A DNA stretch of 26,072 nt from Dehalococcoidia bacterium (GTDB lineage: Bacteria > Chloroflexota > Dehalococcoidia > UBA6926): NCBI GenBank assembly GCA_030754805.1, contig JASLZO010000001.1, positions 1 to 26,072 of the forward strand, given 5' to 3'. Numbering within the stretch: position 1 is the first letter of the stretch; the number at the start of each line of letters is the position of its first letter. The position numbers were made by a program, and so were the translations under genes. Positions 3,084 to 23,026 of the stretch are shown here, piece by piece. Below the pieces are notes generated by a model that did no database searches, was not told the origin of the DNA, and worked only from the letters and a program-made list of their open reading frames with translations.

Positions 3084-3096
3084 GGCGCATCGAGCC

Positions 3097-4401: not shown

Positions 4402-4408
4402 CCTCGCT

Positions 4409-5608
4409 GTGACGATCCTGACGACCTACAAGCGCGCCTATGACGGGACGAAGCTCGATCCGTATCCCGTCGAGTCCCTCAAGAGGGTCGATCGTCCCAC
4501 GACGTTCATCGATGAGGAGCGAATTCAGCGCGTGGATCAGAGGGCCGGCGGTTTTGCGAGGGCCCGGAGCGGAGGTCTCGGGCCCAGCTATCAGAATCTC
4601 TTGGGGCTCTTCAAGTATCCTCTGTCTCGGGCGCAACAACGGATGGCGGCGACTCTCGCCGACAAGGTCGACGGGCCGGTTGCCGAGCACAGGGCTCCGG
4701 GGACGGATGATCCCGAAGCGATGGCGCGCCACATCAAGGCGACGGCCTATTTCCTCAGAGCCGACGTCGTAGGGATATGCCGACTGCCCCCCTATGCCGT
4801 CTACAGCCACAGCCAGGCGACGGGGGAGCCGATCGAATGCGCGCACAAGTATGCCATCGCCGTTCTGGTCGACCAGGACTGGAAGACCGCTGATGCGAGC
4901 TTCGGCAACGACTGGATCAGCACGTCGATGGGCTTTCTTTCGTATTCCACGACCGCGTTCATCTCATGCATCCTGGCCGATTACATCCGGAAGCTCGGCT
5001 ACCCGGCGCGCGCGCATCACATTCGAAACTATCAGGTGATGCTCCCTCCCATCTTGCTCTGGGCTGGACTCGGCGAAATGTGCCGCACGGGCGACATCGT
5101 GCTCAACCCGTTCCTCGGCACGAGATTCAAGGCGGCCGTGGTCACGACGGATCTCCCGCTCGCGATCGACAGGCCGATCGATTTCGGGCTCCAGGACTTC
5201 TGTTCCAAGTGCGCGAAGTGCGCGACGCACTGTCCAGCAGGAGCGATTCCGTTCGGAGAAGATTCGACGGTCGTGCACAACGGCTACGTCAAGTGGAACA
5301 ACGACGTGGACAGGTGTCTGAAGTATAGGATCGGGAATCAGTGGGGGTCCGGCTGTGGGGTGTGCATACACGTCTGTCCATGGAACAAGCCCTTCACACC
5401 GTTTCATCGCTTTGTGAGGTGGACCATGACCAACATTCCCCTAGCCAGGCGGCTCGCCATCTGGGGAGACGACCTCATGGGGTACGGGACCCCGAATCAG
5501 AAAAACAAGTGGTGGCACGATCTCGAAGCCGTGGATGGCGTCCTGCAAACTCCTGACCGATCCGGCAAGCGGTTTGTGAACAGCCCGACAGACAGGGCTT
5601 CAGACTAG
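4409..5608 (+). CDS. Reductive dehalogenase family protein 2 (paralog of 3097-4401)
   Basis: GTG start with GGAG upstream. The N-terminus aligns without gaps to paralog 1 (DPYP at residues 17-20 in both). Motifs DWISTSMGFLSY, NPFLGTRFK, CSKCAKCATHCP and C-X12-CGVCIHVCP. No Tat leader. Confidence 0.85.
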   Translation: MTILTTYKRAYDGTKLDPYPVESLKRVDRPTTFIDEERIQRVDQRAGGFARARSGGLGPSYQNLLGLFKYPLSRAQQRMAATLADKVDGPVAEHRAPGTDDPEAMARHIKATAYFLRADVVGICRLPPYAVYSHSQATGEPIECAHKYAIAVLVDQDWKTADASFGNDWISTSMGFLSYSTTAFISCILADYIRKLGYPARAHHIRNYQVMLPPILLWAGLGEMCRTGDIVLNPFLGTRFKAAVVTTDLPLAIDRPIDFGLQDFCSKCAKCATHCPAGAIPFGEDSTVVHNGYVKWNNDVDRCLKYRIGNQWGSGCGVCIHVCPWNKPFTPFHRFVRWTMTNIPLARRLAIWGDDLMGYGTPNQKNKWWHDLEAVDGVLQTPDRSGKRFVNSPTDRASD

Positions 5609-5640
5609 ACAGTCCGGCGAAGTGAAAGGAAGGAATCCGA

Positions 5641-7356
5641 ATGAACACCGACACCCTGGAGACCGATGTCTTGGTGATTGGCGCGGGCCTTGCGGGCCTC
5701 CGGGCGGCTATACAGATCCGGCGCTACGGCCTGGACGTGATCATCGCGGAGAAGAGTACCGGCCGGACGAACCTGTCGAGCGTCGCCGGCGGAACACAAG
5801 GCATCGTCATGAATTACTGGTCACTGTCCATGCCTCGAGGCCTCAAGGCGCTCTACGAGCGGGGCGTGAAGGGTGGCGCCTGGGAAATCATGTACGGCAA
5901 GGACCAGCGGATGGAGGAGATCACGGCCGTCGAGCAGATCCCGTACCAGGATGAGCTTGCCGAGTTTGGTGTTCTCAATCCCAGGGACCAAAAGACCTAC
6001 GGCCCGCCGGGGCGGGTGAGCTGGGCCACCACCGGTCCGATGTACAAGTACGCTCAGGACCAGGGCGCCAAGCTGATGAAGTACTTCAACATCACCGACA
6101 TCCTCACCGTGGACGGTCAGTGCGTCGGCGCGGTCGGTTTCGACGTCGTGTCTGGAGACTTCACCGTGGTCAAGGCCAAGGCTGTCGTCATGGCCACGGG
6201 CGGCGCGGGCGAGTGCTGGAAGCGAAACAACACGCCGACACGATCGACTGGAGATGGTCACGCCATCGCCTATCGCAACGGCGTGGAAATGAACATGATG
6301 GAGTACGAGAGCTTCGACGCCTGGATCATCTCCGAGAAGGATCAGCCTCAGTTCTGGATTCCTCCGTCGTATGCACGAACCATGGTCAATCTGACCAACG
6401 CGAACGGAGAGGACTTCCTGCCGAATTACATGGTGCTTGGCGACGGTGCCACCCTGAAACCTGGCGACCCTTTCCACATCAAGTACGGAACGCCGGTCAT
6501 TGACAACGTGGCGACGATCGCGCGCGCGATGGCCAACGAGGTTCTCGAGGGACGGGGTGATGATGGCGGGGTGCTCGCCGACTTCTCCCACGTCCCCGAG
6601 GACGCGTGGACCGCCGAGCCCAAGGGGATCGCCGGCCTCCATGCGATGCGAAACTTCGAGTGGGAGAAGAAGCCGATCCGGATGTATCCAGGAGCACTTG
6701 GATCGTGGGGGGGGATCAAGATCTCCGAAGAGTGCGAGACCAACATTCCCGGATTGTTCGCCGGCGGGGAAGTGTCCTACGGTGAGGATCTCAAGTACAC
6801 CCTGGTTTTCGGTGTCAGGGCCGGGAGGGCCGGCGCCGAGTACGCCAGAAGTGTGTCCCGTGTCGAACTGAGCCAGAGTCAGGTGAAAGACAAGAAGGAC
6901 TACCTCGACAGGTTTTCGTCTAGGTCGAAGACGGCTGACGGGAATCCGAGAGCGATCCGTGAGGCGATCCAGAAGCTGAGTATGGACAAGTTTGGCGTAC
7001 TGAAGACCGAGAAGGGGCTTCTCGAGGGCCTGGAGCAGTTGGACGACATTCGGAGGACTGCGCAGGAGAGGATGTATGCCGAGGACCCGCGGGAGCTGAG
7101 ACTGGCATTTGAATCTGACTGCATGATCGATTGTCAGGAGATGCATGCGAAGGCGGCCCTGATGCGGACCGAGACGCGGGGCGTTCACAACCGGCTGGAC
7201 CACCCCTACATGGACAACGATCGCTGGATACAGGACATCAGACTGGAAAAGAAGAACGGTCAGATGGAGTTGCGGACTGTTCCGACCCGCTCGGGCTATG
7301 TGAAGGTCCCCGAGGGCAGATTCCCGATCAGAGGCCTGAAGCAAGAGACTGCGTGA
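5641..7356 (+). CDS. FAD-binding oxidoreductase, SdhA/FrdA/AprA/NadB flavoprotein superfamily, with a non-canonical active site
   Basis: VLVIGAGLAG dinucleotide fold, KAVVMATGG, STGDGHAIAYRNG, GGIKISEECETNIPGLFAGGE, and the C-terminal ALMRTETRGVHNRLDHP helical-domain motif. AAGGA RBS. Confidence 0.85.
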   Translation: MNTDTLETDVLVIGAGLAGLRAAIQIRRYGLDVIIAEKSTGRTNLSSVAGGTQGIVMNYWSLSMPRGLKALYERGVKGGAWEIMYGKDQRMEEITAVEQIPYQDELAEFGVLNPRDQKTYGPPGRVSWATTGPMYKYAQDQGAKLMKYFNITDILTVDGQCVGAVGFDVVSGDFTVVKAKAVVMATGGAGECWKRNNTPTRSTGDGHAIAYRNGVEMNMMEYESFDAWIISEKDQPQFWIPPSYARTMVNLTNANGEDFLPNYMVLGDGATLKPGDPFHIKYGTPVIDNVATIARAMANEVLEGRGDDGGVLADFSHVPEDAWTAEPKGIAGLHAMRNFEWEKKPIRMYPGALGSWGGIKISEECETNIPGLFAGGEVSYGEDLKYTLVFGVRAGRAGAEYARSVSRVELSQSQVKDKKDYLDRFSSRSKTADGNPRAIREAIQKLSMDKFGVLKTEKGLLEGLEQLDDIRRTAQERMYAEDPRELRLAFESDCMIDCQEMHAKAALMRTETRGVHNRLDHPYMDNDRWIQDIRLEKKNGQMELRTVPTRSGYVKVPEGRFPIRGLKQETA

Positions 7357-7378
7357 CCTTCCCAGGAGAACTTGAGAG

Positions 7379-7720
7379 ATGCTGGAAGAAAAAGTCGATG
7401 CCGTCGTCAATCACAAGAAATGCCTTGGAAGAAACTGTCTCCACTGCGTGGACAGCTGCCCGGTGGAGGCGATCGACTGGGATCCGATCGAAGAGCAGGT
7501 GTCGTCGGCCAACATCCAGGAATGCATCGTCTGTCTCGCATGCGAGGAGGCCTGTGCCGAAGACGCCAATGGGTGTCTCACGATGGTGGGCGTCATCCGA
7601 AAGGAATTCACCGCGTCGCCCATACAGGACATGTGGGCGGGAACGGGGGACGTGATCCCGCCCAAGGCCGATCTGCCCGGGGGACGATCAGATACCCGCA
7701 CGTCGAAGTTGGGTTTCTAG
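7379..7720 (+). CDS. 2x[4Fe-4S] ferredoxin with a C-terminal tail (AprB-like partner of the flavoprotein)
   Basis: CLGRNCLHCVDSCP and CIVCLACEEAC motifs, followed by an extension of about 45 aa. AGGAG RBS. Confidence 0.85.
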   Translation: MLEEKVDAVVNHKKCLGRNCLHCVDSCPVEAIDWDPIEEQVSSANIQECIVCLACEEACAEDANGCLTMVGVIRKEFTASPIQDMWAGTGDVIPPKADLPGGRSDTRTSKLGF

Positions 7721-8503
7721 TTGAGAAAACGGCGAGACGCTCTGTACCCGTTGGCAGCGGCCATCGGGCTCGTCGCGGTGTGGCAGCTGGGTGTCCAGTT
7801 ATTGGCGATCCCGGACTACCTGCTGCCTGGGCCGCGCGCCGTCGCTGCGACGGTGGTGTCGGAGCGGACGCTGATATTCCAGCATGGCCTGATCACACTC
7901 TACGAAGCCGGTCTCGGTTTCACGCTTGCCCTCGTGTTCGCCGTGCCGATCTCCGCGATCATCGTCTGGTCGAAGGTTGCCGAGAAGACCGTGCTGCCCC
8001 TGATGGTCTTCCTGCAGACGGTCCCCAAGGTGGCTATTGCGCCGCTCTTCATCATCTGGTTCGGATTCGGTCCGTTCCCGAAGGTCCTGATCAGCTTCTT
8101 GCTGGCCTATTTCCCCATCGTGATCGAGATGGTCACCGGGTTGAGAGATGTGAACCCCACCGTCCTGGACCTGGCGAGATCCATGTCCATCACTCCCTTC
8201 CAGACGTTCACGAAGATACGGATCCCAAATTCACTCCCGTATCTGTTCAGCGGGCTGAAGTTGGGCGCGCTGCTCTCGCTGGTCGGAGCCATCGTGGCAG
8301 AGTTCATGGGGTCGATGGACGGTCTGGGGTACCTCGTCCTCTATGCGAACGACCGGATGGATACGACGCTGTGCTTTGCCGTGCTCGTCGTGCTCCTACT
8401 CCTGGGCAAGGCGCTGTTCTCCGTCGTGGAATGGGTCGAGCGGTACGCGATTGCATGGCATGTCGTCGTTCGGGAGAACGAGCAGATCATGTTCACCACG
8501 TAG
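7721..8503 (+). CDS. ABC transporter permease 1, NitT/TauT (SsuC/TauC) family
   Basis: Motifs PDYLLPGP, PKVAIAPLFIIWFGFG, the EAA-like LDLARSM...KIRIPNSLPYLFSG loop, and GAIVAEF...GLG. The TTG start directly follows the ferredoxin stop. Confidence 0.9.
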   Translation: MRKRRDALYPLAAAIGLVAVWQLGVQLLAIPDYLLPGPRAVAATVVSERTLIFQHGLITLYEAGLGFTLALVFAVPISAIIVWSKVAEKTVLPLMVFLQTVPKVAIAPLFIIWFGFGPFPKVLISFLLAYFPIVIEMVTGLRDVNPTVLDLARSMSITPFQTFTKIRIPNSLPYLFSGLKLGALLSLVGAIVAEFMGSMDGLGYLVLYANDRMDTTLCFAVLVVLLLLGKALFSVVEWVERYAIAWHVVVRENEQIMFTT

Positions 8504-8535
8504 GGGTACAGCTCAGGATGAGGAGTTCGGGGGAG

Positions 8536-9345
8536 ATGGCTCTGGGTAAGGGATTCCGTTGGAGCGCCAGGCTCCCGGAAGCGCTGTATCCCGCCTCCAC
8601 GATCGCTGCGATGCTCGCTGCGTGGCAGCTGTCGATCGTCCTCTTTTCCATACCGGACTTCATCCTGCCTGGTCCGATCGCCGTCATCGAAAGTTTCGTG
8701 GGAAATCTCGGCCTGGTCTGGCCTCATTTCCTGGTCACGACGTTTGAGATGCTTCTGGGGCTTTTTCTCGCCACCGTCTTCGCGGTCGCCGTCTCGATAC
8801 TCATGGTCTGGTCGAGGCCGGTGGAGAAGACACTGCTGCCGCTCCTGGTGTTCTTTCAGACGACACCCAAGCTGGCCGTTGCTCCATTGTTCATCGTCTG
8901 GTTCGGCTTCGGCTACGCTCCCAAGGTCATCATCGCCTTCTGGCTGGCGTACTTCCCGATCGTCATCGCCACGATGACCGGATTGAAGGATGTTGAGCCC
9001 GCACTGATCGATCTGACGAAATCCATGTCGGCGTCCACGCTCCAGACGTTCATCAAGGTCCGACTGCCAAGTTCATTGCCTCACTTCTTCGCCGGTCTCA
9101 AGCTGGGCGGCGTGGTCGCCATTCTTGGAGCCATCGTCGGTGAGTTCGTCGGTGCGAATGAGGGGTTGGGCTACCTGATCACGATGGCGCAACACAACAG
9201 CGACGTGACGTTGCTGTTCTCGGTCGTCATCACGCTCGTGGTCTTGGGCAGGTCGATGTATGCGCTCATCGGCTGGGCCGAAACACACGCCATCTCCTGG
9301 CACGTCACGATGAGGGCGAGGGACCAGAGGTTCTTCACGGCGTGA
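8536..9345 (+). CDS. ABC transporter permease 2, NitT/TauT family
   Basis: The real gene is the 3' part of track ORF 7372-9345, starting at ATG 8536 after GGGGAG. Motifs PDFILPGP, PKLAVAPLFIVWFGFG, KVRLPSSLPHFFAG and GAIVGEFVGANEGLG. Confidence 0.9.
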   Translation: MALGKGFRWSARLPEALYPASTIAAMLAAWQLSIVLFSIPDFILPGPIAVIESFVGNLGLVWPHFLVTTFEMLLGLFLATVFAVAVSILMVWSRPVEKTLLPLLVFFQTTPKLAVAPLFIVWFGFGYAPKVIIAFWLAYFPIVIATMTGLKDVEPALIDLTKSMSASTLQTFIKVRLPSSLPHFFAGLKLGGVVAILGAIVGEFVGANEGLGYLITMAQHNSDVTLLFSVVITLVVLGRSMYALIGWAETHAISWHVTMRARDQRFFTA

Positions 9346-9409
9346 CTCGCAGGGCCAAGGCATCGCCCGACTGGAGGGAGAGGCCCACCGCGCAGAAGAG
9401 GGGGGACGC

Positions 9410-10405
9410 ATGAGAACAAGCTCCCTGATGGTCGGAATGTTGGGCCTGTCTCTCGTGGCTCTGGGAACGGCCTGCCGATCTCGTCAAGCATCCTCCACGG
9501 ATGCACCGGCGCTGGACCAGGTGACGCTGCAGCTCCACTGGAAGTGCTCGGGCCCGCATGTGCCGTTCATCGTTGCGTCGGAGAAGGGATTCTTCGAGGA
9601 GGAAGGCATAGACATCACGATCAGGGAAGGCTCGGGTTCATCGGCGACGAGCAAACTCGTCGCCGCCGGTAGCGCCACGTTCGGAGTGGCCGCGACCAAC
9701 GTCAGCGTGAAGGGAGCCGCCCTGGGGATGCCGATCATTCAAGTGATGCAGATTCAGGAGTCGCGGAGGTACTGCATCCTCTCGAAGCCCGAGACCGGCA
9801 TCAGAACGCCTCAGGATCTGATCGGGAAGGTCATTGCCGGGTCTGGAGGCGGTGGGACCTCAGCCCTCTTCAACGCGTTTCTGGCCGCAAACGAGATTCG
9901 TCAAGAGCAGGTCACGTACCTGAACGCCGGCAGGGCGATGCTCGAGGCGATGGCAACGGGCAGGGCCGATGGCGCGCTTGGCCTTGAAGTGGATGACCTC
10001 GTCAGGCTCCAGGGGATGGACGTCGATCCGGCCCAGGTCATGCTGTTCGAGGATTGGGGGATCCCCGTGATCGGGGACGGGGTGATCGTCAACGCGACGA
10101 CCGCGCGGGAGGATCCCGATCTCATCCGGAGGTTCATCAGGGCGTACATCGCGGGAGTCGGAGAGACCTTCGCCGACGTCGACGCGGCGGCGGAGATCGC
10201 GGTGAGGCGGTTTCCCCTGGCGAGGAAGGAAATTCTCGTCGGCCAGTTGACGAGTGTCCGCTCGCTCTTACCGTCTCCACTGGGATACCAGGATCCCGAG
10301 GCCTTGGAAGAGCTCAGGCGCATCACGGTGGAGTTCGACGGTGTCGCCGAAGCGGCAGACATTCCGTTGACCCGGTTCTCCACGAACGAGTTTCTGCCCG
10401 AGTAG
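9410..10405 (+). CDS. ABC transporter substrate-binding protein, NMT1/THI5/SsuA-like
   Basis: N-terminal signal peptide with a possible lipobox (LGTAC), and LQLHW...HVPFIVASEKGFFEEEGIDITIREGSGS. The THI5 catalytic Lys/His motif is not evident. Confidence 0.85.
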   Translation: MRTSSLMVGMLGLSLVALGTACRSRQASSTDAPALDQVTLQLHWKCSGPHVPFIVASEKGFFEEEGIDITIREGSGSSATSKLVAAGSATFGVAATNVSVKGAALGMPIIQVMQIQESRRYCILSKPETGIRTPQDLIGKVIAGSGGGGTSALFNAFLAANEIRQEQVTYLNAGRAMLEAMATGRADGALGLEVDDLVRLQGMDVDPAQVMLFEDWGIPVIGDGVIVNATTAREDPDLIRRFIRAYIAGVGETFADVDAAAEIAVRRFPLARKEILVGQLTSVRSLLPSPLGYQDPEALEELRRITVEFDGVAEAADIPLTRFSTNEFLPE

Positions 10406-10452
10406 CGATTCCATCAGAATTCTCGCTTCCCAGGGCTTGGACGAGGAGAGAC

Positions 10453-11214
10453 GTGATTACTCTCGACGGCGTGCACTTGACGTATCCGCACAAGGGCGGG
10501 TCGATCGAGGCATTGACGGATGTCAGCTTCTCGGCGAGGGAGGGGGAGTTCCTCTCCATTGTCGGCCCGAGCGGCTGCGGGAAATCCACCCTGATCAAGA
10601 TCATCGCCGGTCTCCTTCCGACGTCCAAGGGAGAGGCGCGCGTCGATGGGAAGCTGGTCCGGGGCCCACACCCGAATGTCGGGATCGTCTTTCAGGAGGC
10701 GACCCTACTGGCATGGCGCTCCGTCTTGCGGAACATCATGCTGCAGATCGAGGTGCGACAGGAGTTCGAGAACGACGCCTACGTACCGAGGGCGCGGGAC
10801 CTGATCAAGCTGGCGGGGTTGGATGGGTTCGAGGACCGGTACCCGTGGGAGCTCTCAGGCGGCATGCAGCAGCGCGTCTCCTTCTGTCGGGCACTCATCC
10901 ACGACCCTCCGCTCCTGCTCATGGATGAACCGTTCGGCGCGCTGGATGCCATGACGCGGGATGAAATGGGCGTCTGGCTTCAGAAGACGTGGATGGAACG
11001 AGCGCGAACGGTTCTGTTCGTCACGCACGATATCGGTGAAGCGGTCTTTCTCTCGGATCGAGTCATGGTGATGACAGCCAGGCCCGGGCGCGTGAAGGAG
11101 ATCATGGAGATCGACTTGCCCAGGCCCAGAGAACTCAGAATCACGGAAGAGATCGAGTTCGTGAAGTATGTCTCCCATGCACGACGCCTCATGCACGCGG
11201 AGGGATACTACTGA
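10453..11214 (+). CDS. ABC transporter ATP-binding protein, NitT/TauT family
   Basis: GTG start after GAGGAG, inside track ORF 10054-11214. Walker A GPSGCGKST, signature LSGGMQQR, Walker B LLMDEPFGALD, H-loop VTHD. Confidence 0.93.
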   Translation: MITLDGVHLTYPHKGGSIEALTDVSFSAREGEFLSIVGPSGCGKSTLIKIIAGLLPTSKGEARVDGKLVRGPHPNVGIVFQEATLLAWRSVLRNIMLQIEVRQEFENDAYVPRARDLIKLAGLDGFEDRYPWELSGGMQQRVSFCRALIHDPPLLLMDEPFGALDAMTRDEMGVWLQKTWMERARTVLFVTHDIGEAVFLSDRVMVMTARPGRVKEIMEIDLPRPRELRITEEIEFVKYVSHARRLMHAEGYY

Positions 11215-11221
11215 CCCAAGT

Positions 11222-11249
11222 GAGCTCTGGGGTTAGCCCCCGGGGCCTC
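11222..11249. terminator. Imperfect GC-rich hairpin between convergent genes (possible bidirectional terminator)
   Basis: gagctct-GGGG-ttag-CCCC-cggggcctc in the 55-bp gap between the ABC ATPase stop and the ThDP gene stop. There is no U-tract, so support is weak. Confidence 0.25.
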
Positions 11250-11269
11250 TCCTTGAAGCCGGCCGGGTA

Positions 11270-13255
11270 TCACACGTTTCGCGTGCGGCTGTCGGCAAGA
11301 CTGAATTGACTGTGCCAGGTGGATTCGGCTCCCGCGTCGATGCAGCGGATTCTGGCGTCGATCACGTACGGCCGACCCTCCCGGGTGGCGGCGATGCCGA
11401 TCTCCAGCTCGCTCTCCAGTTCGTCGGCCGTCGTCGCCTTCGCAGCGGAGATCCCCTGAGATTCGGCAAGCTTGACGAAATCGATCTCCGGATCGCCAAG
11501 AAACATCGTCGGGTAGCGATCGGTCTGCGCCATGTTGCCCTGATACCGCGCGAAGCGAAACCGCACCTGCTGATAGTTGACGTTGTTCCAGATGACGGTG
11601 AGTACGGGGACCCGATAGCGTGCCATCGTCCAGAAACCGGCCGCGCTGTACATCACGGAGCCGTCGCCGATGTGAAGCACGACCTGGCGATCGGGCTGGC
11701 CGAGCTTGGCGCCGATGGCCGCCCCGACTCCCCACCCGAGCGAGCCGCCGGCCGCGTGAAGCCGCATCTTCTCACCGACGCCGACAGATTGGAGTGGCGC
11801 GTAGGGACGGGCCATGTCGTGGCTGACGTTCTCGTGAATCGTGATGGCGTCGCGATCCGACGCGCGCTCGGTGAGCAGCGCGACGTCATCGGGATGCATC
11901 GGATTCTGACCCAGATTCGGGCGAATATCCGCGTCCGCGGCACGGCGCATCCTCTCCGGGAGCGCCGCCAGTCGGTCGTAGCGGCTGGCGCGGATCGCGG
12001 CGAGACGCTCCGTCGTGGCCAGGCTGCGAATCGACTCGAGGAGATCGTCGAGCGCCAGTCCGACATCGGCGACGATGGCCAGATCGACAGGCTCCGTTCG
12101 GGCCATCGAACCGGTATCGATTCCGATCGCCACCTTCTTGGCATCGGCGGGGATCGAGGGAGGATAGTTTCCCGGACCCCAGACTCCCCGCTCCGAAATC
12201 GTTGGGCTGGTCGAGATTGTCCGGACCGCGAAGTTCTCGGCACCCAGCGCAAGGAACATGTCCGCGGTCTTGAACGGATTCTCCTCTTCGATGAAGCGCA
12301 TGCCCCCGTAGCTGTAGTAGAGCGGGTGCTGTGTCGGGAAATGCGCGCCAATGTTGTACCAGCCGAGGAAATCCGAGACTGGCATGGCGAGCAGGTCCGC
12401 CAGCTCCATCGCTTGCGGAACCGCGCCCGATCGGTTCAGCTCGCTCTCCACGATGAGGCACGGTTGCACGCTCTCCAAGAGCCACCGCGCGGTCTGTTCG
12501 ATATCTGCGGCGTTGGGACGAGACCGGATCGGAACGGAGAACTTGCTCTGGTCGATGATCTCCGCCGAGACGTCCTTGGCTTCCAGCGCCGCGGTCCCGA
12601 GGGCCACGTAGACCGGACCTCCGGGAGGCGTCGCGGCGACCTTGAACGCTCGCCGCATGGCCAGCGGAATGCTCTCCGGATTGCGGACCTCCCAGGAGAG
12701 CTTGGAGAACTGCTTGTTGACGTCGACCTGCTCGAAGCCGGGCCGTGGCGCAAGCACGAGATCGTCGCTGAAGACCGTGGTGTCCACGAGAGCAGCGGTG
12801 ACCACCATGGAGGCATGATCGCGGTGGGCGTTGAAGAGCTGGCCCGATGCCTGGGCGGTCCCGGCGATTGCGTGAAGATTGACGAAGGCCGTCTCGCCGG
12901 TCACCTGGTTGTAGCCGTCGGCCATGGCAATGACGAGGCCTTCGTGCAACCCCACGATCGGCTGAATCTCCGGAGCGCCGGCCAAGGCGTCGAAGAAGCC
13001 AACTTCCGTGGAGCCAGGATTCGTGAAGACATACTTCACGTTCGCGGCCTTGAGTTGCTCCACGAGGAGTTCTCCGCCCGTTCCGGTCGCGGTGCGATAG
13101 GTGCCGCTTGGTTGGTCGGCCGGCGTCTCCGCCGCCGCGAGATTACTCAGGAGAGACTCGACGAAGCCGGCCGTGAAGCCGGCCGCCACCATCCGCCTGA
13201 AGAAGCCACGACGGGAGAGGCGATTGTTCAGGTATTCAGCCAGGAGCTCACGCAT
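11270..13255 (-). CDS. Thiamine-diphosphate-dependent enzyme, benzoylformate-decarboxylase-like, with an N-terminal twin-arginine (Tat) signal
   Basis: ATG at 13255 with a GGAGGG RBS (the longer track start at 13483 overlaps the opposite gene). Signal MRELLAEYLNNRLSRRGFFRRMVAAG...LAAA. Motifs FTNPGSTE, GLHEG (cofactor-activating Glu), NLHAIAG, and the ThDP motif GDGSVMY...VIWNN. Confidence 0.88.
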   Translation of the reverse strand: MRELLAEYLNNRLSRRGFFRRMVAAGFTAGFVESLLSNLAAAETPADQPSGTYRTATGTGGELLVEQLKAANVKYVFTNPGSTEVGFFDALAGAPEIQPIVGLHEGLVIAMADGYNQVTGETAFVNLHAIAGTAQASGQLFNAHRDHASMVVTAALVDTTVFSDDLVLAPRPGFEQVDVNKQFSKLSWEVRNPESIPLAMRRAFKVAATPPGGPVYVALGTAALEAKDVSAEIIDQSKFSVPIRSRPNAADIEQTARWLLESVQPCLIVESELNRSGAVPQAMELADLLAMPVSDFLGWYNIGAHFPTQHPLYYSYGGMRFIEEENPFKTADMFLALGAENFAVRTISTSPTISERGVWGPGNYPPSIPADAKKVAIGIDTGSMARTEPVDLAIVADVGLALDDLLESIRSLATTERLAAIRASRYDRLAALPERMRRAADADIRPNLGQNPMHPDDVALLTERASDRDAITIHENVSHDMARPYAPLQSVGVGEKMRLHAAGGSLGWGVGAAIGAKLGQPDRQVVLHIGDGSVMYSAAGFWTMARYRVPVLTVIWNNVNYQQVRFRFARYQGNMAQTDRYPTMFLGDPEIDFVKLAESQGISAAKATTADELESELEIGIAATREGRPYVIDARIRCIDAGAESTWHSQFSLADSRTRNV

Positions 13256-13283
13256 TGACACCCTCCGAGCGCAGACAGGACGC

Positions 13284-13303
13284 CCTCGAGGATGATCTCG
13301 AGG
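13284..13303. promoter_or_regulatory. 7-6-7 inverted repeat, possible operator
   Basis: CCTCGAG-gatgat-CTCGAGG, just downstream of the candidate minus-strand -10 box in the divergent intergenic region. Confidence 0.25.
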
Positions 13304-13310
13304 TGCTGCG

Positions 13311-13339
13311 TTCGTACCTGCAATCACGGTTTCTGTCAA
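13311..13339 (-). promoter_or_regulatory. Candidate sigma70-type promoter for the ThDP enzyme gene
   Basis: On the minus strand: a perfect TTGACA (13339-13334), a 17-nt spacer, then TACGAA (13316-13311; 3/6 match to TATAAT), about 55 nt upstream of the start codon. Confidence 0.35.
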
Positions 13340-13457
13340 GGGAGGACTTCGCGCCGCGTGACGCCGAGGGTGAACCGACGGCGGCGCCCGACGGCCCCGT
13401 GGAGTTATGCTTTGCACGGCGGAGGCATGAGGGCCGTCGCGTGGGTGAAGGTATCTG

Positions 13458-15821
13458 ATGAACGACGACAGATTCGAGGTCATCGGTCGGGTGACCCGGC
13501 GTCAGGACGGCCACGCCATGGTCACCGGGCGGCAGCTGTACTCCTCGGACATCAGCCTTCCGAACATGCTTCAGGCCAGAGTCTTGAGAAGTCCCTACCC
13601 TCACGCGCGGATCGCCGCTATCGACACCAGCGAAGCGGAACGCCTGGGCGCCGTCTGCATCACCCCCGAGGACGTGCCGCGGGTCAAGTACAACGAGCGT
13701 CAGGTGAGCGTTCCGGCCAAGACCTACCGCGACCGAACGGTCCTGCCGGACAAGGTCCGGCACGTCGGGCAGGGCGTCGTTGCGGTCGCCGCCAGGACGG
13801 AAGCGCTGGCGGACAGGGCGCTCGACGCCCTTGACGTCGAATTCGAATCGCTGCCTGCGGTCTTCGATCCCCACGAAGCGATGCGAGATGGCGCGCCGCA
13901 GTTGCATGACGCGGTCCTGTTGGGCGAGACCGTCCTCCCCATCGAGCGGAATATCGCCTGTTACCGGGAGGCGGTAGAAGGCGACGTGGCTCGAGGGCTC
14001 GAGGAGGCGGACCTCGTCGTGGAGAACGAATTCACGACCGGGAGGGCCTACCACGGCCAGCTGGAGAGCAAGGCGGTTGTGTGCCGCCCGGAAGCCGACG
14101 GCGGAATCACGGTGTGGGCCACCGCGCAGTCGATTCACAATACCCGCCAGCTCTTGGGAAGCCTCTTCGACATCCCCCTCAGCAAGATCAACGTGCAACG
14201 TGTGCCGATTGGTGGGTCGTTTGGCTCGAGCATCCAGATGAACAGTTCCGTCGCCGTCTGCGTCGCCCTGGCGCTCAAGGCTCAGAAGTCGGTGAAGCTG
14301 GTGCTGACCCGCGAAGAGGATATGTACGACCACTGCAAGTATCCGTCGAATATCCACCTCACCTACGGCGTGAAACGCGACGGAACCCTGACAGCGGGAT
14401 ATTTGAAGACGGTCGTCGACATTGGAGGGCACAACATCCAGGCGTATCCGCTGCTCGGGTGCATGGCGGGCTGGTTCGTCTCTCTGTACCGACTGCCGCA
14501 TCTGAAGTTCGAGGGTACGGCGGTGTACACCAACAAGGCTCCAGCCTGTGCCATGCAGGGATACGGGAACCCGCAGGTCACATTCGCGGTGGAGTCGATG
14601 ATGGACACCATCGCCGAAGAACTCGACATCGATCCGATCGACGTTCGCCTGAAGAACTACGTGGGGCTCGGCGAGACGTTCTGGGGGCAGGGTCCGACTG
14701 TGCGCTCGGTCATTCGGAGTTGCGGTGTGGAGGAGATGCTGCTGAAGGGAAAGGCGATGGTCGGCTGGGAGGGTCGCGGGAGCTCCACGAGCAAGACCGG
14801 GCGCTTCCGAAGGGGGATCGGGGTCGGCCGAGGGTTCCACACATCGGGCACCGGTGCGCCCACGCCGGGTGAGGTCATCGACTACTCCACGGCGATGGTC
14901 AAGATTAACGAGGACGGGTCGGTCGACTGCCTGACCGCGCTCATGTGCCACGGCGGGGGAACGTTGGACGCGGGCGCCAAGATGGTGGCCGAGGAACTCG
15001 GTGTGCCTCTCGACCGGGTGGGAATCTCGCCGTCGAACACCCGCTCCACCGGCTACGACGTCTGCACCCACGCGACCCGTGGGGTGTACTGCGGCGGCGC
15101 GAGCCTTCTGAGGGCCGCCCAAGATGTAAAGAAGATTCTGTTCGACTTCGCCTCGCGCATCATCGACGTCAATCCGGACGCGCTGAAGGTCCGACCCGAC
15201 ACGAACCGTGGCCAGGGCGTCGTCTGCTTGCCCGGAGCGCCGGCCAAACGGATCACCGTGGCCGAGGTGGCCAAGACCGCGCAGATCAAGGGATGGGGCT
15301 CGATCATCGCCGTCGTGAGCCATCGGCAGGTGAACTGTCCGCCCTGCTTCGTCGTGAATTTCGTCGAGGTAGAGGTCGACACGGCGACCGGGCAGATTCG
15401 ACCGATGCGCGCCGTGGCCGCAGTCGATGCCGGGACGGTCATCAACCCCGACCTAGCCGCCGGGCAGCTCGAGGGCGGCCTCTGCCGGGGCATCGGCCTC
15501 GCGCTTCTGGAAGATACGACTTACAAGCCGGATACCGGAGAGCTTACCTGTGGCGGGTATCTCACCGACTACAAGGTCTATACGGCACAGGACATGCCCT
15601 CGCTCGAGGATCTGTCGACGTTCTTTGCCGACACCTACGAGCCGTCAGGTCCGTTCGGCGCCAAGGGCGTCGGCGAAGCCGCGAACAATGCGACCGCCGG
15701 CGCCGTAGCCAATGCCATCTACAACGCCGTGGGGATCCGCTTGACGGAGGCGCCGATCACTCCGGAACGCGTCTTGAGTGCGTTGACGCGGGACGCGGAA
15801 CAGCTCCAGCAGGGGCGGTAA
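13458..15821 (+). CDS. Xanthine dehydrogenase family molybdopterin-binding (large) subunit 1
   Basis: Motifs LRSPYPHARI, TAQSIH, GGSFGSS, AMQGYGNPQ, DAGTVINP...GQLEGG and GAKGVGE (catalytic Glu present). Confidence 0.92.
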   Translation: MNDDRFEVIGRVTRRQDGHAMVTGRQLYSSDISLPNMLQARVLRSPYPHARIAAIDTSEAERLGAVCITPEDVPRVKYNERQVSVPAKTYRDRTVLPDKVRHVGQGVVAVAARTEALADRALDALDVEFESLPAVFDPHEAMRDGAPQLHDAVLLGETVLPIERNIACYREAVEGDVARGLEEADLVVENEFTTGRAYHGQLESKAVVCRPEADGGITVWATAQSIHNTRQLLGSLFDIPLSKINVQRVPIGGSFGSSIQMNSSVAVCVALALKAQKSVKLVLTREEDMYDHCKYPSNIHLTYGVKRDGTLTAGYLKTVVDIGGHNIQAYPLLGCMAGWFVSLYRLPHLKFEGTAVYTNKAPACAMQGYGNPQVTFAVESMMDTIAEELDIDPIDVRLKNYVGLGETFWGQGPTVRSVIRSCGVEEMLLKGKAMVGWEGRGSSTSKTGRFRRGIGVGRGFHTSGTGAPTPGEVIDYSTAMVKINEDGSVDCLTALMCHGGGTLDAGAKMVAEELGVPLDRVGISPSNTRSTGYDVCTHATRGVYCGGASLLRAAQDVKKILFDFASRIIDVNPDALKVRPDTNRGQGVVCLPGAPAKRITVAEVAKTAQIKGWGSIIAVVSHRQVNCPPCFVVNFVEVEVDTATGQIRPMRAVAAVDAGTVINPDLAAGQLEGGLCRGIGLALLEDTTYKPDTGELTCGGYLTDYKVYTAQDMPSLEDLSTFFADTYEPSGPFGAKGVGEAANNATAGAVANAIYNAVGIRLTEAPITPERVLSALTRDAEQLQQGR

Positions 15822-15823
15822 CG

Positions 15824-16702
15824 ATGGGCAACACGAGGATCTTGACCCGGGAATTCGAATACGTCGCGCCGGAGACGATGCCGGAACTTCTCGCGCTGCT
15901 GGACCGATACGGTCCGGCGGCAACGATCATCGCGGGCGGAACCGATGTCGTGCCCCAGCTGAAGTACGAAAAGATTTCGCCTGACTACCTGATTGATGTC
16001 ACGAAGATAGCCGAGTTGCGCACCGTGCGGCGAGACGGGGCCCTGCACATCGGTGCCGCGGTGAGGCTGCGCGACGTCAAGGCCTACTGCAGGGACAACG
16101 AGACCTACGCCTGCCTCGGTGACGCGCTCGGCTCGATCGGCCAGGCCCAGGTCGTCAACATGGGGACGTTGGGCGGAAACATTTGCACAGCCTCACCGGC
16201 CGCCGATTCCGCTCTGGCGCTCCTGGTCTTGGAGGCCCGGGTACGACTGATCGGTTCGGGCGGAGAGCGGGTCGTGCCGCTCGACGCCTTCTTTCGGGGA
16301 CCCAAGATGACCGGCATGGAGCCTGGCGAAGTCATGGCGGAGATCCAGGTTCCGGCTGTCGTGGACCACACCGGAAGTGCGTTTCGAAAGATCGGGCGGG
16401 TGGCGGGGGACATCTCCAAGATCAGTTGCGCGGTTGCGGTGCAGAGCGATGGCGAGCGGTGTCTCTCATGCCGGATTGGGATGGGGGCTGTCGGCCCGAC
16501 GCCGATGCGAATGCCCGGTGTGGAACAGCTCTTGTCGGGTCGAGCGATTGACGCGGGCGTGATGGATGAGGCCGCCGACCGAATCGCGGCCGACATCTCG
16601 CCCCTGACCGACGTGCGATCCACCGAGTTCTATCGACGACGCGTCTCCCGCGTGCTGTTCAAGGACACGTTCGACCAGGCATGGAAGCGGGTTCAGCGAT
16701 AG
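15824..16702 (+). CDS. Xanthine dehydrogenase family FAD-binding (medium) subunit 1
   Basis: ATG at 15824 inside track ORF 14945-16702. Motifs IAGGTDVVP, GTLGGNICTASPAADS, and DVRSTEFYRR. Confidence 0.9.
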   Translation: MGNTRILTREFEYVAPETMPELLALLDRYGPAATIIAGGTDVVPQLKYEKISPDYLIDVTKIAELRTVRRDGALHIGAAVRLRDVKAYCRDNETYACLGDALGSIGQAQVVNMGTLGGNICTASPAADSALALLVLEARVRLIGSGGERVVPLDAFFRGPKMTGMEPGEVMAEIQVPAVVDHTGSAFRKIGRVAGDISKISCAVAVQSDGERCLSCRIGMGAVGPTPMRMPGVEQLLSGRAIDAGVMDEAADRIAADISPLTDVRSTEFYRRRVSRVLFKDTFDQAWKRVQR

Positions 16703-16704
16703 CC

Positions 16705-17172
16705 ATGATGACGAAGCGACGCGTCACGTTGACCGTCAACGGCGAGCACGTCGAGCCGCTGGTGGAGGCGAATGCGCTGCTCGTCAACGTCCTGAGAGAA
16801 GAGTTGCAACTGACGGGCACGAAGTACTGCTGCGGCACCGGACAGTGCGGGGGATGCACGGTACTCGTCAACGGGGAGCCGATTCTGAGTTGCCTGACGC
16901 TGGCGGTTGCCGTCGATGGCGCAGATATCCTGACGATTGAAGGAGTGGCTAAACCGGACGGATCACTGGATCCGATCCAGGAGGCGTTTCTGGATCATGG
17001 AGCCGTGCAGTGCGGGTTCTGCACGCCCGGGATGATTCTCATGGCCAAGGATCTGCTCGCGCACGACCCTTCACCTTCGGAAGAACGGATCCGGGAGCAC
17101 CTGAGAGGGAACCTCTGTCGATGCACTGGGTATCACCGAATCGTCAAGGCGATAGGAAGCTGCGGCCAGTAG
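16705..17172 (+). CDS. Xanthine dehydrogenase family 2x[2Fe-2S] (small) subunit 1
   Basis: CGTGQCGGC...SCL, QCGFC and CRCTGY motifs. The start is taken as ATG 16705, just after the medium-subunit stop (track start is 16681). Confidence 0.92.
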   Translation: MMTKRRVTLTVNGEHVEPLVEANALLVNVLREELQLTGTKYCCGTGQCGGCTVLVNGEPILSCLTLAVAVDGADILTIEGVAKPDGSLDPIQEAFLDHGAVQCGFCTPGMILMAKDLLAHDPSPSEERIREHLRGNLCRCTGYHRIVKAIGSCGQ

Positions 17173-17200
17173 CGGCAGCCTTGCTCCAGCCTCGGCACGG

Positions 17201-18100
17201 ATGAGAAAGACGAAGACGAAGACAGTGACGAGCACCACGTACCTGCGGCCTACCGACTTGAACGACCTCCAGCAGATCATGGCGGAGCACCAAGGGCGAG
17301 CTGCCGTCGTCGCGGGCGCCACCGACATGATTCCTCAGATGCGAGCCGGGCGGACTCTACCCGCGGTTCTCGTCGATCTCTGCGAGATAGCGGAACTGTC
17401 GTTCATACGTGAAGAGCACGGCAGCATTGCGATCGGCGCAACCACCACGATGGCCAAGCTCGCCTCGAGCCCCATCATTGCCAGCGGCAGCCCGTTCCTA
17501 GCGACGGCTGCCCGGCAGGTCGGACACCCGCAGACCCGGAATCGAGCCACCATCGGGGGCAATCTCGCCAACGCGTCTCCCAGCGCGGACACCGCACCTC
17601 CACTTCTGGCCCTGGGCGCCGCGGTTCAGATCATGAGTCCGGATGGGGCCATCAGAGATGTGCCCCTGCACCAGTTTTTTCATTCCTACAGGGTGACGGA
17701 TCTGGGCGAGGGCGACGTGCTGACCCGGATCACGTTTCCCAGGCCGCCGGATGGAGCGGCCGGACGTTTCACCAAGATCGGCCTGAGAAGCGCATCGTCG
17801 ATCAGCGTTGCCAGCGTCGCCGTGATGCTGGAGATGGAGGAGACGACCTGCCGGACGGCACGGGTCGCGGCAGGGTCGGTGGCTCCGATACCGATGCGAG
17901 TCTTCCGCATCGAAGAGCTGCTTGAAGGCCACGAGATTGGCGAGACGCTCGTCGAGGAATGTTCCGAACTCTTGCGGGCGGAGATCTCGCCCATCAGTGA
18001 CGTTCGAGGCTCTGACAAGTACCGCTCGTATGTGGCCTCGGCGGTCCTGAAGCGACAGATCGAGATGGCCGTGGCAGACCGGAGGACATTCGGCGCATGA
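17201..18100 (+). CDS. Xanthine dehydrogenase family FAD-binding (medium) subunit 2
   Basis: Motifs VAGATDMIP, RNRATIGGNLANASPSADT, and PISDVRGSDKYR. An alternative GTG start lies at 17225. Confidence 0.9.
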   Translation: MRKTKTKTVTSTTYLRPTDLNDLQQIMAEHQGRAAVVAGATDMIPQMRAGRTLPAVLVDLCEIAELSFIREEHGSIAIGATTTMAKLASSPIIASGSPFLATAARQVGHPQTRNRATIGGNLANASPSADTAPPLLALGAAVQIMSPDGAIRDVPLHQFFHSYRVTDLGEGDVLTRITFPRPPDGAAGRFTKIGLRSASSISVASVAVMLEMEETTCRTARVAAGSVAPIPMRVFRIEELLEGHEIGETLVEECSELLRAEISPISDVRGSDKYRSYVASAVLKRQIEMAVADRRTFGA

Positions 18101-18594
18101 CGACGTATCCGATCGACATCAAGGTCAACGGCGAATGGAAGCGGGCGGAGGTGACGGCCCGCGAGACCCTGTTGGACGCGTTGCGGAATCGCCTGAGGGC
18201 CTTCGAGGTGAAGGACGGGTGCAGTCAGGGCGATTGCGGAGCGTGCACCGTCATCCTGGCTGGACGTGCGGTCAACGCCTGTCTGACGCTGGCCGTGCAG
18301 GCCAACGGCAAGGAGATCACCACGCTGAAGGGTGTCGGAACGTCGGAGAATCCCGATCCCCTTCAGAAGAGCTTCGTCGAGCACGGCGCGATTCAGTGCG
18401 GGTTCTGCACGCCGGGGGTGGTGGTGTCGGCGAAGGCTCTGCTCGAGGCCAATCCGAACCCGAACCGAGAGGAGATCCGCGAAGGGATCTCCGGAAACCT
18501 GTGTCGCTGTACCGGGTACACGCAGATCGTCGAGGCCATCGAGGACGCGGCGGCACACGGCAGGCGTGGCGTAGGAGAGCGGGAAGATGCCTGA
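18097..18594 (+). CDS. Xanthine dehydrogenase family 2x[2Fe-2S] (small) subunit 2
   Basis: KDGCSQGDCGAC...NACL, QCGFC and CRCTGY motifs. ATGA overlap with the upstream gene. Confidence 0.92.
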   Translation: MTTYPIDIKVNGEWKRAEVTARETLLDALRNRLRAFEVKDGCSQGDCGACTVILAGRAVNACLTLAVQANGKEITTLKGVGTSENPDPLQKSFVEHGAIQCGFCTPGVVVSAKALLEANPNPNREEIREGISGNLCRCTGYTQIVEAIEDAAAHGRRGVGEREDA

Positions 18595-20887
18595 GAATCG
18601 TACCAGGCCTGCATACCGGATCATCGGGAAGGCGGCTCCGCGGCCAGACGCCTGGGCAAAAGTGTTCGGCGACACGGCGTACGCCCATGACTACACAGTG
18701 CCGGGGATGCTCTGCGCGAAGGTGCTGAGGAGCCGCCACCCCGCCGCGCGGGTCCTGTCCATCGACACCGGTGACGCAGAGAAGCTGCCCGGCGTCGACG
18801 CGGTCTTGACCGCCAAGGATGTGCCGAACAACGAGACGGCCACGCGGTTCGGACAGACCCATCAGGTGGGCGGGTTCGAGGGGCTCTACCGGGTCCTGGC
18901 CGAGAAGAAGATCCGATTCAAGGGCGAAGCGGTTGCGCTGGTCGCGGCGACGAGTGAGGCGGTCGCCGAGGAGGCGCTCGGTCTCATTCACGTGGAGTAC
19001 GAACCGCTCGAAGGCGTCTTCGATCCGGTCGAGGCGAAGCAGGCCGGAGCCTACCAGGTCGGGGAAGACGAGAGTAACGTCATTTGCAGCTACAAGGTCA
19101 GAAAGGGTGACGTCGAGGAGGGGTTCAAGCTGGCTGATGTCGTGGTCGAACAGACCTACCGGGTGCCGATGGTGGACCATGCCTATCTGGAGCCGGAATC
19201 CGGCGTGGCCTGGCTGGATCAGGACGGCGTGATCACCATTCGATCCGCCACTCAGGTCATCGAGCACTTCAGGGGAATCGCCGATGTCTTGGGCGTGTCG
19301 CACAACCGGGTCCGGATCATCGCCCCGATGCTCGGCGGCGGCTTCGGCGGCAAGGAAGACATCACGGTCGAGACCTACCTGGCGCTACTCGTGTGGAAGA
19401 CCCGAAAGCCCGTATCGCTGACCTACACGCGGGAAGAGTCCATTCGCTCCCACGGCAAGCGCCATCCCTACGTCATGAGGTACAAGACCGGCGCCACCAA
19501 GGCCGGCAAGCTGGTGGCCCTGGAGGCGGAACTGACGTCCGATGCCGGGGGCTACGTGTACCTGAGTCCCTGGGTTCTTCTGTATTCCACGGTCGGCGCC
19601 ACCGGGCCCTACGACATTCCCCACGTCAAGGTCGATTCCGAGACGGTGCTCACCAACAACACGTTCAGCAGTGCGAACCGCGGGTTCGGTGCTCCGCAGG
19701 TCTGTTTCGCGTGCGAGAGCCAGCTGGATGAGCTTGCCAAGCAACTTGGCCTCTCGCCGCTCGAGATCCGTCGTAAGAACTATCTTCGTACTGGGGATGC
19801 GCTGGCGACCGGGCGGGTCCTCGAGCACAGTGTCGAGACCGAGCAGACGGCCGACAGGGCCCTGGAGGCGCTCGGTGAACCCTCCGGACCCAGTTCGCCA
19901 ACCGAGAGAATCGGCCGGGGCATCGCCTCCAGCATGACGAGCTACGGCCGAATGACCTTCCTGCACGACACATCCAGAGCGCTGGTCAGCATCGAGATGG
20001 ACGGGAGCGTCTCTGTCAGGTGCGGCCTGCAGGATGTTGGCGGCGGTCAAGCATCCTCCTTGGCACAGATCGCCGCGGAGGTCCTCGGGGTTCCCATGGA
20101 GGACGTCACCGTCTACGTCGGGGATTCGGCCTTGACGCCACTGGCCGGGACTACCACCGCGACGCGGCTGCTCTACATGTCGGGCAACGCCACCAAGAAG
20201 GCGGCGACGGCGGTGCGTCACAGCCTGGTGAAGAAGGCGGCCGACCTGTTGGATGTCGACCCGGAAGAGCTGGCCATGGGGGATCGACAGATCTATTCCG
20301 CAGGCGACCCCGACCGTGCCGTGGCCCTGGAACGCGTCGTCAAGGCCTGCGCGGCGGATGGGATCCCCCTGTACGACGTGGCACAGTTCAATGCTCCAGC
20401 CCGCGAACTGATCGACTTCCAGACCGGCCAGGGACAGGTGTTTCCCGATTTCACCTTTGGCACGCAGGCCATGGAAGTATCGGTGGACATCGAGACGGGC
20501 GCCGTGAAGGTGCTCAAGATCGTTTCCTGCTACGACGTCGGTCAGGCCATCAACACCTTGAGTGCCGAGGGGCAACTGCACGGCGGGGCGTTGTACGGCT
20601 TGGGCTACGGAATGATGGAAGAGGTAGTCCTGGACAAGGGGAACACGCTGACCCCTTCATTCGCCGAGTATCTCATTCCCAGTGCCGTCGATGTTCCCGA
20701 TGTCAAGACGATCATGATCGAATCCGGCGGCGGTGTCGGGCCGTTCGGTGCCAAGGGATTGGGGGAACCGTCCTGCGTCCCGGCGGCGGCGGCGTTTGCC
20801 AACGCAGTCAGCGACGCCATCGGCGCTCGAGTGTGCGACCTGCCGGTGACACCCGAGAGGATCTTGAAGGCCTTGGGAAGATTCTGA
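18587..20887 (+). CDS. Xanthine dehydrogenase family molybdopterin-binding (large) subunit 2
   Basis: Motifs HAYLEPE, SATQ, GGGFGGKED, HGKRHP, ANRGFGAPQ, TTATR, GQLHGG and GAKGLGE. Confidence 0.92.
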   Translation: MPENRTRPAYRIIGKAAPRPDAWAKVFGDTAYAHDYTVPGMLCAKVLRSRHPAARVLSIDTGDAEKLPGVDAVLTAKDVPNNETATRFGQTHQVGGFEGLYRVLAEKKIRFKGEAVALVAATSEAVAEEALGLIHVEYEPLEGVFDPVEAKQAGAYQVGEDESNVICSYKVRKGDVEEGFKLADVVVEQTYRVPMVDHAYLEPESGVAWLDQDGVITIRSATQVIEHFRGIADVLGVSHNRVRIIAPMLGGGFGGKEDITVETYLALLVWKTRKPVSLTYTREESIRSHGKRHPYVMRYKTGATKAGKLVALEAELTSDAGGYVYLSPWVLLYSTVGATGPYDIPHVKVDSETVLTNNTFSSANRGFGAPQVCFACESQLDELAKQLGLSPLEIRRKNYLRTGDALATGRVLEHSVETEQTADRALEALGEPSGPSSPTERIGRGIASSMTSYGRMTFLHDTSRALVSIEMDGSVSVRCGLQDVGGGQASSLAQIAAEVLGVPMEDVTVYVGDSALTPLAGTTTATRLLYMSGNATKKAATAVRHSLVKKAADLLDVDPEELAMGDRQIYSAGDPDRAVALERVVKACAADGIPLYDVAQFNAPARELIDFQTGQGQVFPDFTFGTQAMEVSVDIETGAVKVLKIVSCYDVGQAINTLSAEGQLHGGALYGLGYGMMEEVVLDKGNTLTPSFAEYLIPSAVDVPDVKTIMIESGGGVGPFGAKGLGEPSCVPAAAAFANAVSDAIGARVCDLPVTPERILKALGRF

Positions 20888-20900
20888 CCCTTGTGACGTC

Positions 20901-21575: not shown

Positions 21576-21640
21576 AACGGCCGAGAAGACGTCCTCGTGG
21601 AACCCACGCCGATGACACGCAGCATCAGCAGGTGCCGACC

Positions 21641-23014: not shown

Positions 23015-23026
23015 GGCGGTGAACAC

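Follow-up and report, generated by a model that had tools for sequence, protein, structure and literature searches.

A benzoylformate decarboxylase-like thiamine diphosphate enzyme with a predicted twin-arginine export leader in a Dehalococcoidia bacterium

Can a thiamine diphosphate (ThDP)-dependent enzyme of the benzoylformate decarboxylase (BFD) type work outside the cytoplasm? To our knowledge, every ThDP enzyme with this fold that has been characterised is cytoplasmic or located in an organelle matrix. The question is raised by a gene at positions 11270-13255, minus strand, of a 26,072-nucleotide stretch of DNA from a Dehalococcoidia bacterium (assembly GCA_030754805.1, contig JASLZO010000001.1; the whole stretch is referred to below as the window). 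This gene codes for a precursor of 661 amino acids (aa), in which a BFD-like enzyme is preceded by an N-terminal extension with a twin-arginine motif. The original prediction, made from the DNA letters, was that the protein is a ThDP enzyme of the BFD type bearing a twin-arginine translocation (Tat) signal, and hence that it carries out periplasmic chemistry. We found that this proposal holds as far as sequence analysis allows, and we consider it fairly likely that the gene product is exported by Tat and acts in the periplasm as a non-oxidative, BFD-type ThDP enzyme. This reading rests on several observations: the fold, cofactor and catalytic motifs that are all intact, a conserved Tat consensus, a single origin of the leader followed by losses, the periplasmic partners of a sister clade and a complete Tat system in the genome; from these we infer the export of this protein, its cleavage site, its oligomeric state in export, and its reaction and substrate.

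The open reading frame, which like all features described within it lies on the minus strand, begins with an ATG at 13255-13253 and ends with a stop codon at 11270-11272. A Shine-Dalgarno sequence, GGAGGG, was read directly from the DNA at 13261-13266, 5 nt upstream of the ATG, and the same MREL... N-terminus starts close homologues that are 84% and 78% identical to the query. A longer version starting at 13483 (737 aa) was dismissed: its extra 76 residues are rich in Arg and Pro and occur in no homologue, and a strong Shine-Dalgarno sequence precedes the ATG at 13255. The possibility that the true start lies downstream of the twin arginines was also considered; the start was found upstream of the motif, and the N-termini of homologues agree. 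A scan of 11100-13600 for promoters and terminators gave no signal above shuffled expectation. The extension ahead of the enzyme domain, earlier put at about 60 aa, is real and amounts to approximately 56 residues relative to BFD. All motifs that had been quoted for the protein were found, including SRRGFF(R) at residues 14-20, a hydrophobic stretch at 21-32, AAA at 40-42 and a linker at 42-56, as well as NPGSTE, LHE, NLH and GDG...NN.

The enzyme body showed the Pfam domain order PYR-middle-PP, with each domain scoring above its cut-off: TPP_enzyme_N (PF02776, residues 59-160, positions 12776-13081), TPP_enzyme_M (PF00205, residues 252-405, 12041-12502) and TPP_enzyme_C (PF02775, residues 502-633, 11357-11752). 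Because these domains begin at residue 59, the residues before position 57 are extra compared to ordinary enzymes of the fold. The ThDP/Mg motif GDG-X24-NN was present in the PP domain at residues 530-558 (11582-11668). HMMER alignment to BFD chains matched S82, E84, E105 and H128 of the PYR domain to BFD S26, E28, E47 and H70, respectively, and H310 of the middle domain (12326-12328) to BFD H281. BFD residues S26, E28, H70 and H281 are involved in substrate binding and in protonation of the enamine intermediate. We aligned 67 non-redundant homologues, 27-84% identical to the query, and used them for all conservation counts given below out of 67. E105, D531, G532, N557 and N558 were invariant in this set (67/67). 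Within the clade that contains the query (49 rows, hereafter the query's clade), S82, E84 and H128 were present in 49/49 members and H310 in 47/49.

Which enzyme is this? The best NCBIfam match was benzoylformate decarboxylase NF005485, and its score of 272.4 bits is below the equivalog cut-off of 493, so the protein is not an equivalog of any named enzyme. Among solved structures, the best matches by sequence were 7ORX, the 4-hydroxybenzoylformate decarboxylase from Rhodococcus jostii (E 3e-48), and the Pseudomonas putida BFD series (E values of these closest matches ranged from 3e-48 to 5e-45). An AlphaFold2 model built on the 67 homologues had a mean pLDDT of 89.8, and a Foldseek comparison of this model with BFD chains gave target-normalised TM scores of 0.83-0.86. 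Public annotations of relatives read just 'thiamine pyrophosphate-binding protein' or 'benzoylformate decarboxylase', and a search of the ESM Atlas returned solely unnamed 'thiamine pyrophosphate-binding protein' clusters. The body ends in a C-terminal tail of 25 aa (residues 637-661, 11273-11347) with the consensus ...G-A-x-S-T-W-H-x-x-F-S-L-A..., a pairwise identity of 0.48 and a Trp, W647, conserved in 66/67 homologues. This tail is specific to the whole clade of Tat-ThDP proteins, leaderless members included; BFD and the cytoplasmic relatives of ~555 aa stop short of it. C-terminal helices cap the active site in other ThDP decarboxylases, and by analogy the tail may serve as such a cap.

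The leader starts with an n-region (residues 1-13, MRELLAEYLNNRL, 13217-13255), an amphipathic helix which is conserved and specific to this enzyme family; in the query's genome, its pattern occurred on the five ThDP paralogues only. Next comes the twin-arginine motif SRRGFFR (residues 14-20, 13196-13216). It is followed by a short h-region (residues 21-32, RMVAAGFTAGFV, 13160-13195), containing 11 uncharged residues and a Gly at position 26 that is conserved in 65/67 homologues, and by the c-region ESLLSNLAA (residues 33-41, 13133-13159), whose first residue is acidic. A variable linker of 15 aa (residues 42-56, 13088-13132), gappy in the alignment and with a mean pairwise identity of 0.155, connects the leader to the enzyme body. 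The AlphaFold2 model showed the leader as helices with pLDDT of 65-76, one of them at residues 2-9, and fell below 50 at residues 44-50 of the linker. A putative signal-peptidase site is L39-A40-A41 / A42-E43, within a segment (39-43) whose family consensus is L-E-A-[AS]-E.

R15 and R16 were each found in 67/67 homologues, F18 in 66/67 and S14 in 56/67, with I, V, L or F at position 19 and K, R or Q at position 20. The motif thus agrees position by position with the Tat consensus S-R-R-x-F-[ILVF]-[KR] (S-R-R-x-F-L-K). It had been asked of the original prediction whether the twin arginines are conserved among homologues, and they are. The full invariance of R15 and R16, on a par with that of the catalytic Glu and of the GDG/NN residues, shows that the leader is not a chance feature. 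Relatives number several hundred in large protein collections, and more than 130 of these are full-length proteins (~620-665 aa) that carry the extension, usually with the twin arginines at position 15. We also considered a microcompartment encapsulation peptide as an explanation of the n-region helix and rejected it, as the window has no shell genes and Tat accounts better for the twin arginines. A complex prediction for TatC (residues 30-270) with the leader (residues 1-56) scored 0.00 and counts neither for nor against recognition.

The history of the leader was examined in a maximum-likelihood tree based on enzyme-body columns only, the leader columns having been removed. All 70 leader-bearing rows fell into a single clade of 78 rows (SH-aLRT 100), apart from the leaderless relatives of ~555 aa. 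Eight rows without a signal were nested at two places inside this clade, and the most economical history is therefore one gain of the leader and at least two losses. The DNA was inspected for one nested leaderless member (P0012, 57% identical): a gap of 35 nt separates the end of the preceding gene from its start codon, which has a strong Shine-Dalgarno sequence, and no leader is encoded in-frame upstream. Such clean removal fits a role in targeting more readily than one as an integral element of the fold. Another nested leaderless member (P0030, 55% identical; Logan SRR22840555) is encoded 45 nt downstream of a gene for a 787-aa PQQ-dependent dehydrogenase. PQQ-dependent dehydrogenases are normally periplasmic, which makes this an odd partner for a protein that has lost an export leader.

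Additional evidence came from a sister clade of 13 rows, which joins the query's clade in one well-supported clade of the body-only tree. In both, the leader is built alike (n-region helix, SRRxF, G-F-T) and the C-terminal tail with W647 is present. We sampled six sister-clade members for gene neighbours, and c-type cytochrome genes adjoined five of them, two of these cytochromes having Sec signals. In P0128, a dihaem cytochrome with a Sec signal is encoded 55 nt upstream; P0144 is preceded by a 97-aa monohaem protein, also with a Sec signal; P0133 has one cytochrome 5 nt downstream of the gene; P0160 has two cytochromes directly downstream; and P0186 has a downstream cytochrome in a locus that includes a TonB-dependent receptor. 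The sixth locus, that of P0127, had no adjacent cytochrome. Maturation of c-type cytochromes takes place only outside the cytoplasm. Because their partners are c-type cytochromes, these sister-clade enzymes must be periplasmic.

Some details of these cytochromes were also noted. Haem motifs in the sister-clade loci were C-x-Q-C-H-D (L099:2251-2946 and L100:5176-5562) and C-T-Y-C-H-A (L103:2125-2418), and the cytochromes at L102:3458-4866 matched the Pfam family Dehyd-heme_bind. In L100, a 285-aa protein with a Sec signal and no assigned family is encoded directly downstream of the cytochrome.

The two clades differ in their catalytic residues and in their neighbours. The sister clade has assorted residues in place of the equivalents of BFD H70 and E28, whereas the query's clade retains the full BFD set. 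No same-strand open reading frame (ORF) with a CxxCH motif occurred within 600 nt downstream in any of 75 related loci of the query's clade, and none of the five paralogues of the query's genome had a same-strand adjacent cytochrome. With its catalytic residues kept and no electron acceptor, the query's clade would be expected to perform non-oxidative BFD-type chemistry. The sister clade, judging by its residues and partners, probably diverts the intermediate to electron transfer.

The 3.3-Mb query genome possesses a Tat system, including tatC (219 bits), adjacent tatA/B and further tatA-like genes, as well as dozens of Tat-like leaders. The TatC it encodes shares 96% identity with a TatC of a Vicinamibacterales metagenome-assembled genome, and matches in Tara Oceans data were also obtained. 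The genome contains five Tat-ThDP paralogues, counting the copy in the window; the others are 34-53% identical to the query and have leaders of the form MRE(L/I)...RRxF. They were located at C40:202391-204331 (P0042), C45:7424-9319, C33:26713-28620 and C1:1-1449, with C44:47-541 as the possible other half of the last. A 333-aa CxxCH ORF lies 1.2 kb away from the C1 paralogue (2646-3647, minus strand). The C45 paralogue is near a gene of the SorA-like sulfite oxidase family that has its own Tat signal, and a SorB-like cytochrome c gene is convergent (9821-10900, minus strand). The proximity of a SorA-like sulfite dehydrogenase prompted us to consider an Xsc-like desulfonation, and this was rejected: the genes are convergent, the Xsc model scored far below BFD, and the arrangement did not recur.

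Taken as a mechanism, export would proceed as follows. The precursor would fold in the cytoplasm, bind ThDP and Mg2+, and assemble at least to a dimer before export, because the ThDP sites of this fold sit at the dimer interface. SRRGFFR would then be recognised by TatBC and the folded, cofactor-loaded oligomer translocated, after which signal peptidase would cleave near A41/A42 to leave a mature enzyme of ~620 aa. In the periplasm, the enzyme would convert a 2-oxo acid to an aldehyde and CO2, or carry out a related acyloin cleavage or ligation, driven by the acid-base set S82/E84/H128/H310 together with the activating E105.

Several observations weigh against export of this protein. Only 11 uncharged residues follow the motif in the query leader before the acidic E33; the original prediction overlooked both this unusually short h-region and the acidic residue after it. 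According to the TATFIND rule, the uncharged h-region should have a minimum of ~13 residues. Moreover, neither of the curated Tat profiles, TIGR01409 and PF10518, matched the query leader, even with E values of up to 10 allowed. The n-region, with a mean pairwise identity of 0.40 among the 67 homologues, is more conserved than the middle domain and unusually conserved for a signal peptide, which hints at some additional or altogether different function, for instance in binding a chaperone. The immediate neighbours of the ThDP gene encode cytoplasmic enzymes. Finally, no ThDP enzyme that is periplasmic or exported by Tat was described in the full-text papers searched, and the one co-mention was unrelated.

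Could the leader then have descended from a Tat signal while export was lost in the query's subclade? The enzyme would in that case be cytoplasmic or located at the inner face of the membrane, and the n-region and twin arginines would act as a chaperone, regulatory or assembly handle. A precedent is NarG, whose vestigial Tat-like N-terminus binds NarJ. The conserved n-region and the cytoplasmic neighbours agree with this explanation, and the short h-region is not peculiar to the query: among 135 family members, roughly half had an uncharged stretch of 11-12 residues and the other half one of at least 15, and position 33 was polar or charged in most. The profile result points the same way, as three control Tat signals of the query's genome passed the TIGR01409 cut-off of 16.7 bits, whereas the query did not match. 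However, this cut-off was also passed by the leader of P0122, a member of the main clade (23.4 bits), as well as by that of the sister-clade protein P0186 (28.2 bits). P0042, from the same genome as the query, has an uncharged h-region of 19 residues; its leader was weak in the curated Tat-profile test. Furthermore, the twin arginines, S14 and F18 are as strictly conserved in the query's subclade as elsewhere, the lineages that abandoned the leader deleted it entirely and kept no remnant, and no candidate chaperone gene was conserved nearby in 80 related loci. We therefore regard loss of export as unlikely, though it deserves serious consideration, and continue to favour a Tat-exported periplasmic enzyme.

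The gene neighbourhood bears on a different proposal, one that does not depend on the enzyme's location. It had been suggested that the ThDP enzyme supplies aldehydes to, or consumes products of, the divergently encoded molybdoenzymes of the XDH/CODH type. The genes are indeed divergent, with an intergenic region of 200 bp, and a second paralogue (C40:202391) lies within ~2 kb of an XDH-type large subunit. But signal peptides are missing from all six XDH-type subunits encoded in the window, which places the molybdoenzymes in a different compartment from a periplasmic ThDP enzyme, and the synteny does not recur. We searched for neighbours in the 80 related loci, one of which (L010) is from the window's own genome, using ORFs of at least 90 aa and again of at least 45 aa. 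Besides L010, an XDH-type match was found in only 1 of the 80 loci, and that match involved just the small [2Fe-2S] subunit. The clade as a whole had no conserved neighbour of any type: none was common to more than 16 of the 80 loci, only local synteny among close relatives was seen, the commonest neighbours had Pfam matches unrelated to each other, and no small ORF was conserved beside the ThDP gene at the 45-aa limit. Genes of the window searched against these loci did not recur either. An association of the ThDP enzyme with molybdoenzymes is thus not supported as a property of the family; it would require metabolites to cross the membrane and could at most be local, and we judge such coupling improbable.

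Least probable, and in our opinion quite implausible, is that the leader is an uncleaved Tat signal-anchor which, as in Rieske proteins, tethers the enzyme to the inner membrane on its outer side: L-A-A/A-E is a weak match to AxA, the leader is conserved over its full length as for a retained part, and AlphaFold2 models it as helices, but the 11-residue uncharged stretch with its acidic interruptions is too short and polar for a membrane span, and the 39-43 consensus, acidic at +2, resembles a cleavage region.

The remaining genes of the window were also inspected. An operon at 3097-11214, convergent with the ThDP gene, encodes two 4Fe-4S ferredoxin-domain proteins of 400-434 aa, a flavoprotein similar to SdhA/AprA, and an ABC importer of the NMT1 type with a lipobox (LGTAC) in its binding protein. 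The region 13458-24466 contains two complete XDH/CODH-type molybdenum hydroxylase sets (with large, medium and small subunits in the orders L-M-S and M-S-L), AroM, two amidohydrolases and flanking SSF symporters, and looks like a cytoplasmic island for catabolism of N-heterocycles.

How does a predicted periplasmic BFD-type enzyme compare with known systems? BFD itself (MdlC of P. putida, 1BFD) and the 4-hydroxybenzoylformate decarboxylases (7ORX, 6QSI) have the same three-domain, flavin-free ThDP fold as the query, and BFD shares with it the activating Glu, GDG...NN and the equivalents of S26, E28, H70 and H281. Identity to BFD is just ~25-30%, and unlike BFD the query has the 56-residue Tat-type leader and linker, the 25-aa C-terminal tail, and insertions near residues 340-365 and 415-447. 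It also differs from BFD in lacking a mandelate-pathway context, as no mandelate racemase or mandelate dehydrogenase gene was present within the window. With regard to export, the closest likeness we noted is glucose-fructose oxidoreductase of Zymomonas mobilis, a Tat-exported enzyme with tightly bound NADP and a Rossmann/GFO-IDH-MocA fold, for which export was shown experimentally. There, as proposed here for the query, an enzyme dependent on an organic cofactor that only the cytoplasm supplies is folded and loaded in that compartment before Tat exports it. Fold and cofactor are unrelated to those of the query, and export of the query is predicted rather than experimental. Judged from its sequence, the protein would bring a known fold and mechanism to a compartment from which this class has not been reported. 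What is new here is the stand-alone, cytochrome-less branch, its retained set of BFD residues, the five copies in one small genome and the atypical short h-region.

More broadly, and tentatively, these proteins may make up a large, stand-alone group of ThDP decarboxylases or lyases that reach the periplasm through Tat as ThDP-loaded oligomers, present in five copies in a 3.3-Mb genome and distinct from the sister clade, which would pass electrons to cytochromes c. Such a clade would give diderm bacteria extracytoplasmic C-C cleavage or decarboxylation of organic acids, and the helical n-region would be a dedicated quality-control handle, holding back export until cofactor binding has taken place. 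The family comprises hundreds of sequences from Acidobacteriota, Gemmatimonadota, KSB1, Latescibacterota and others. If export is true, ThDP would join the organic cofactors exported by Tat, and decarboxylation or acyloin chemistry would take place where many environmental bacteria first encounter dissolved organic matter. BFD-type enzymes are useful biocatalysts, and naturally secretable variants could be of practical value. The two branches, one with the full BFD proton relay and no partner and the other with two residues lost and paired with cytochrome c, would also provide a handle on how the enamine intermediate is routed between protonation and electron transfer.

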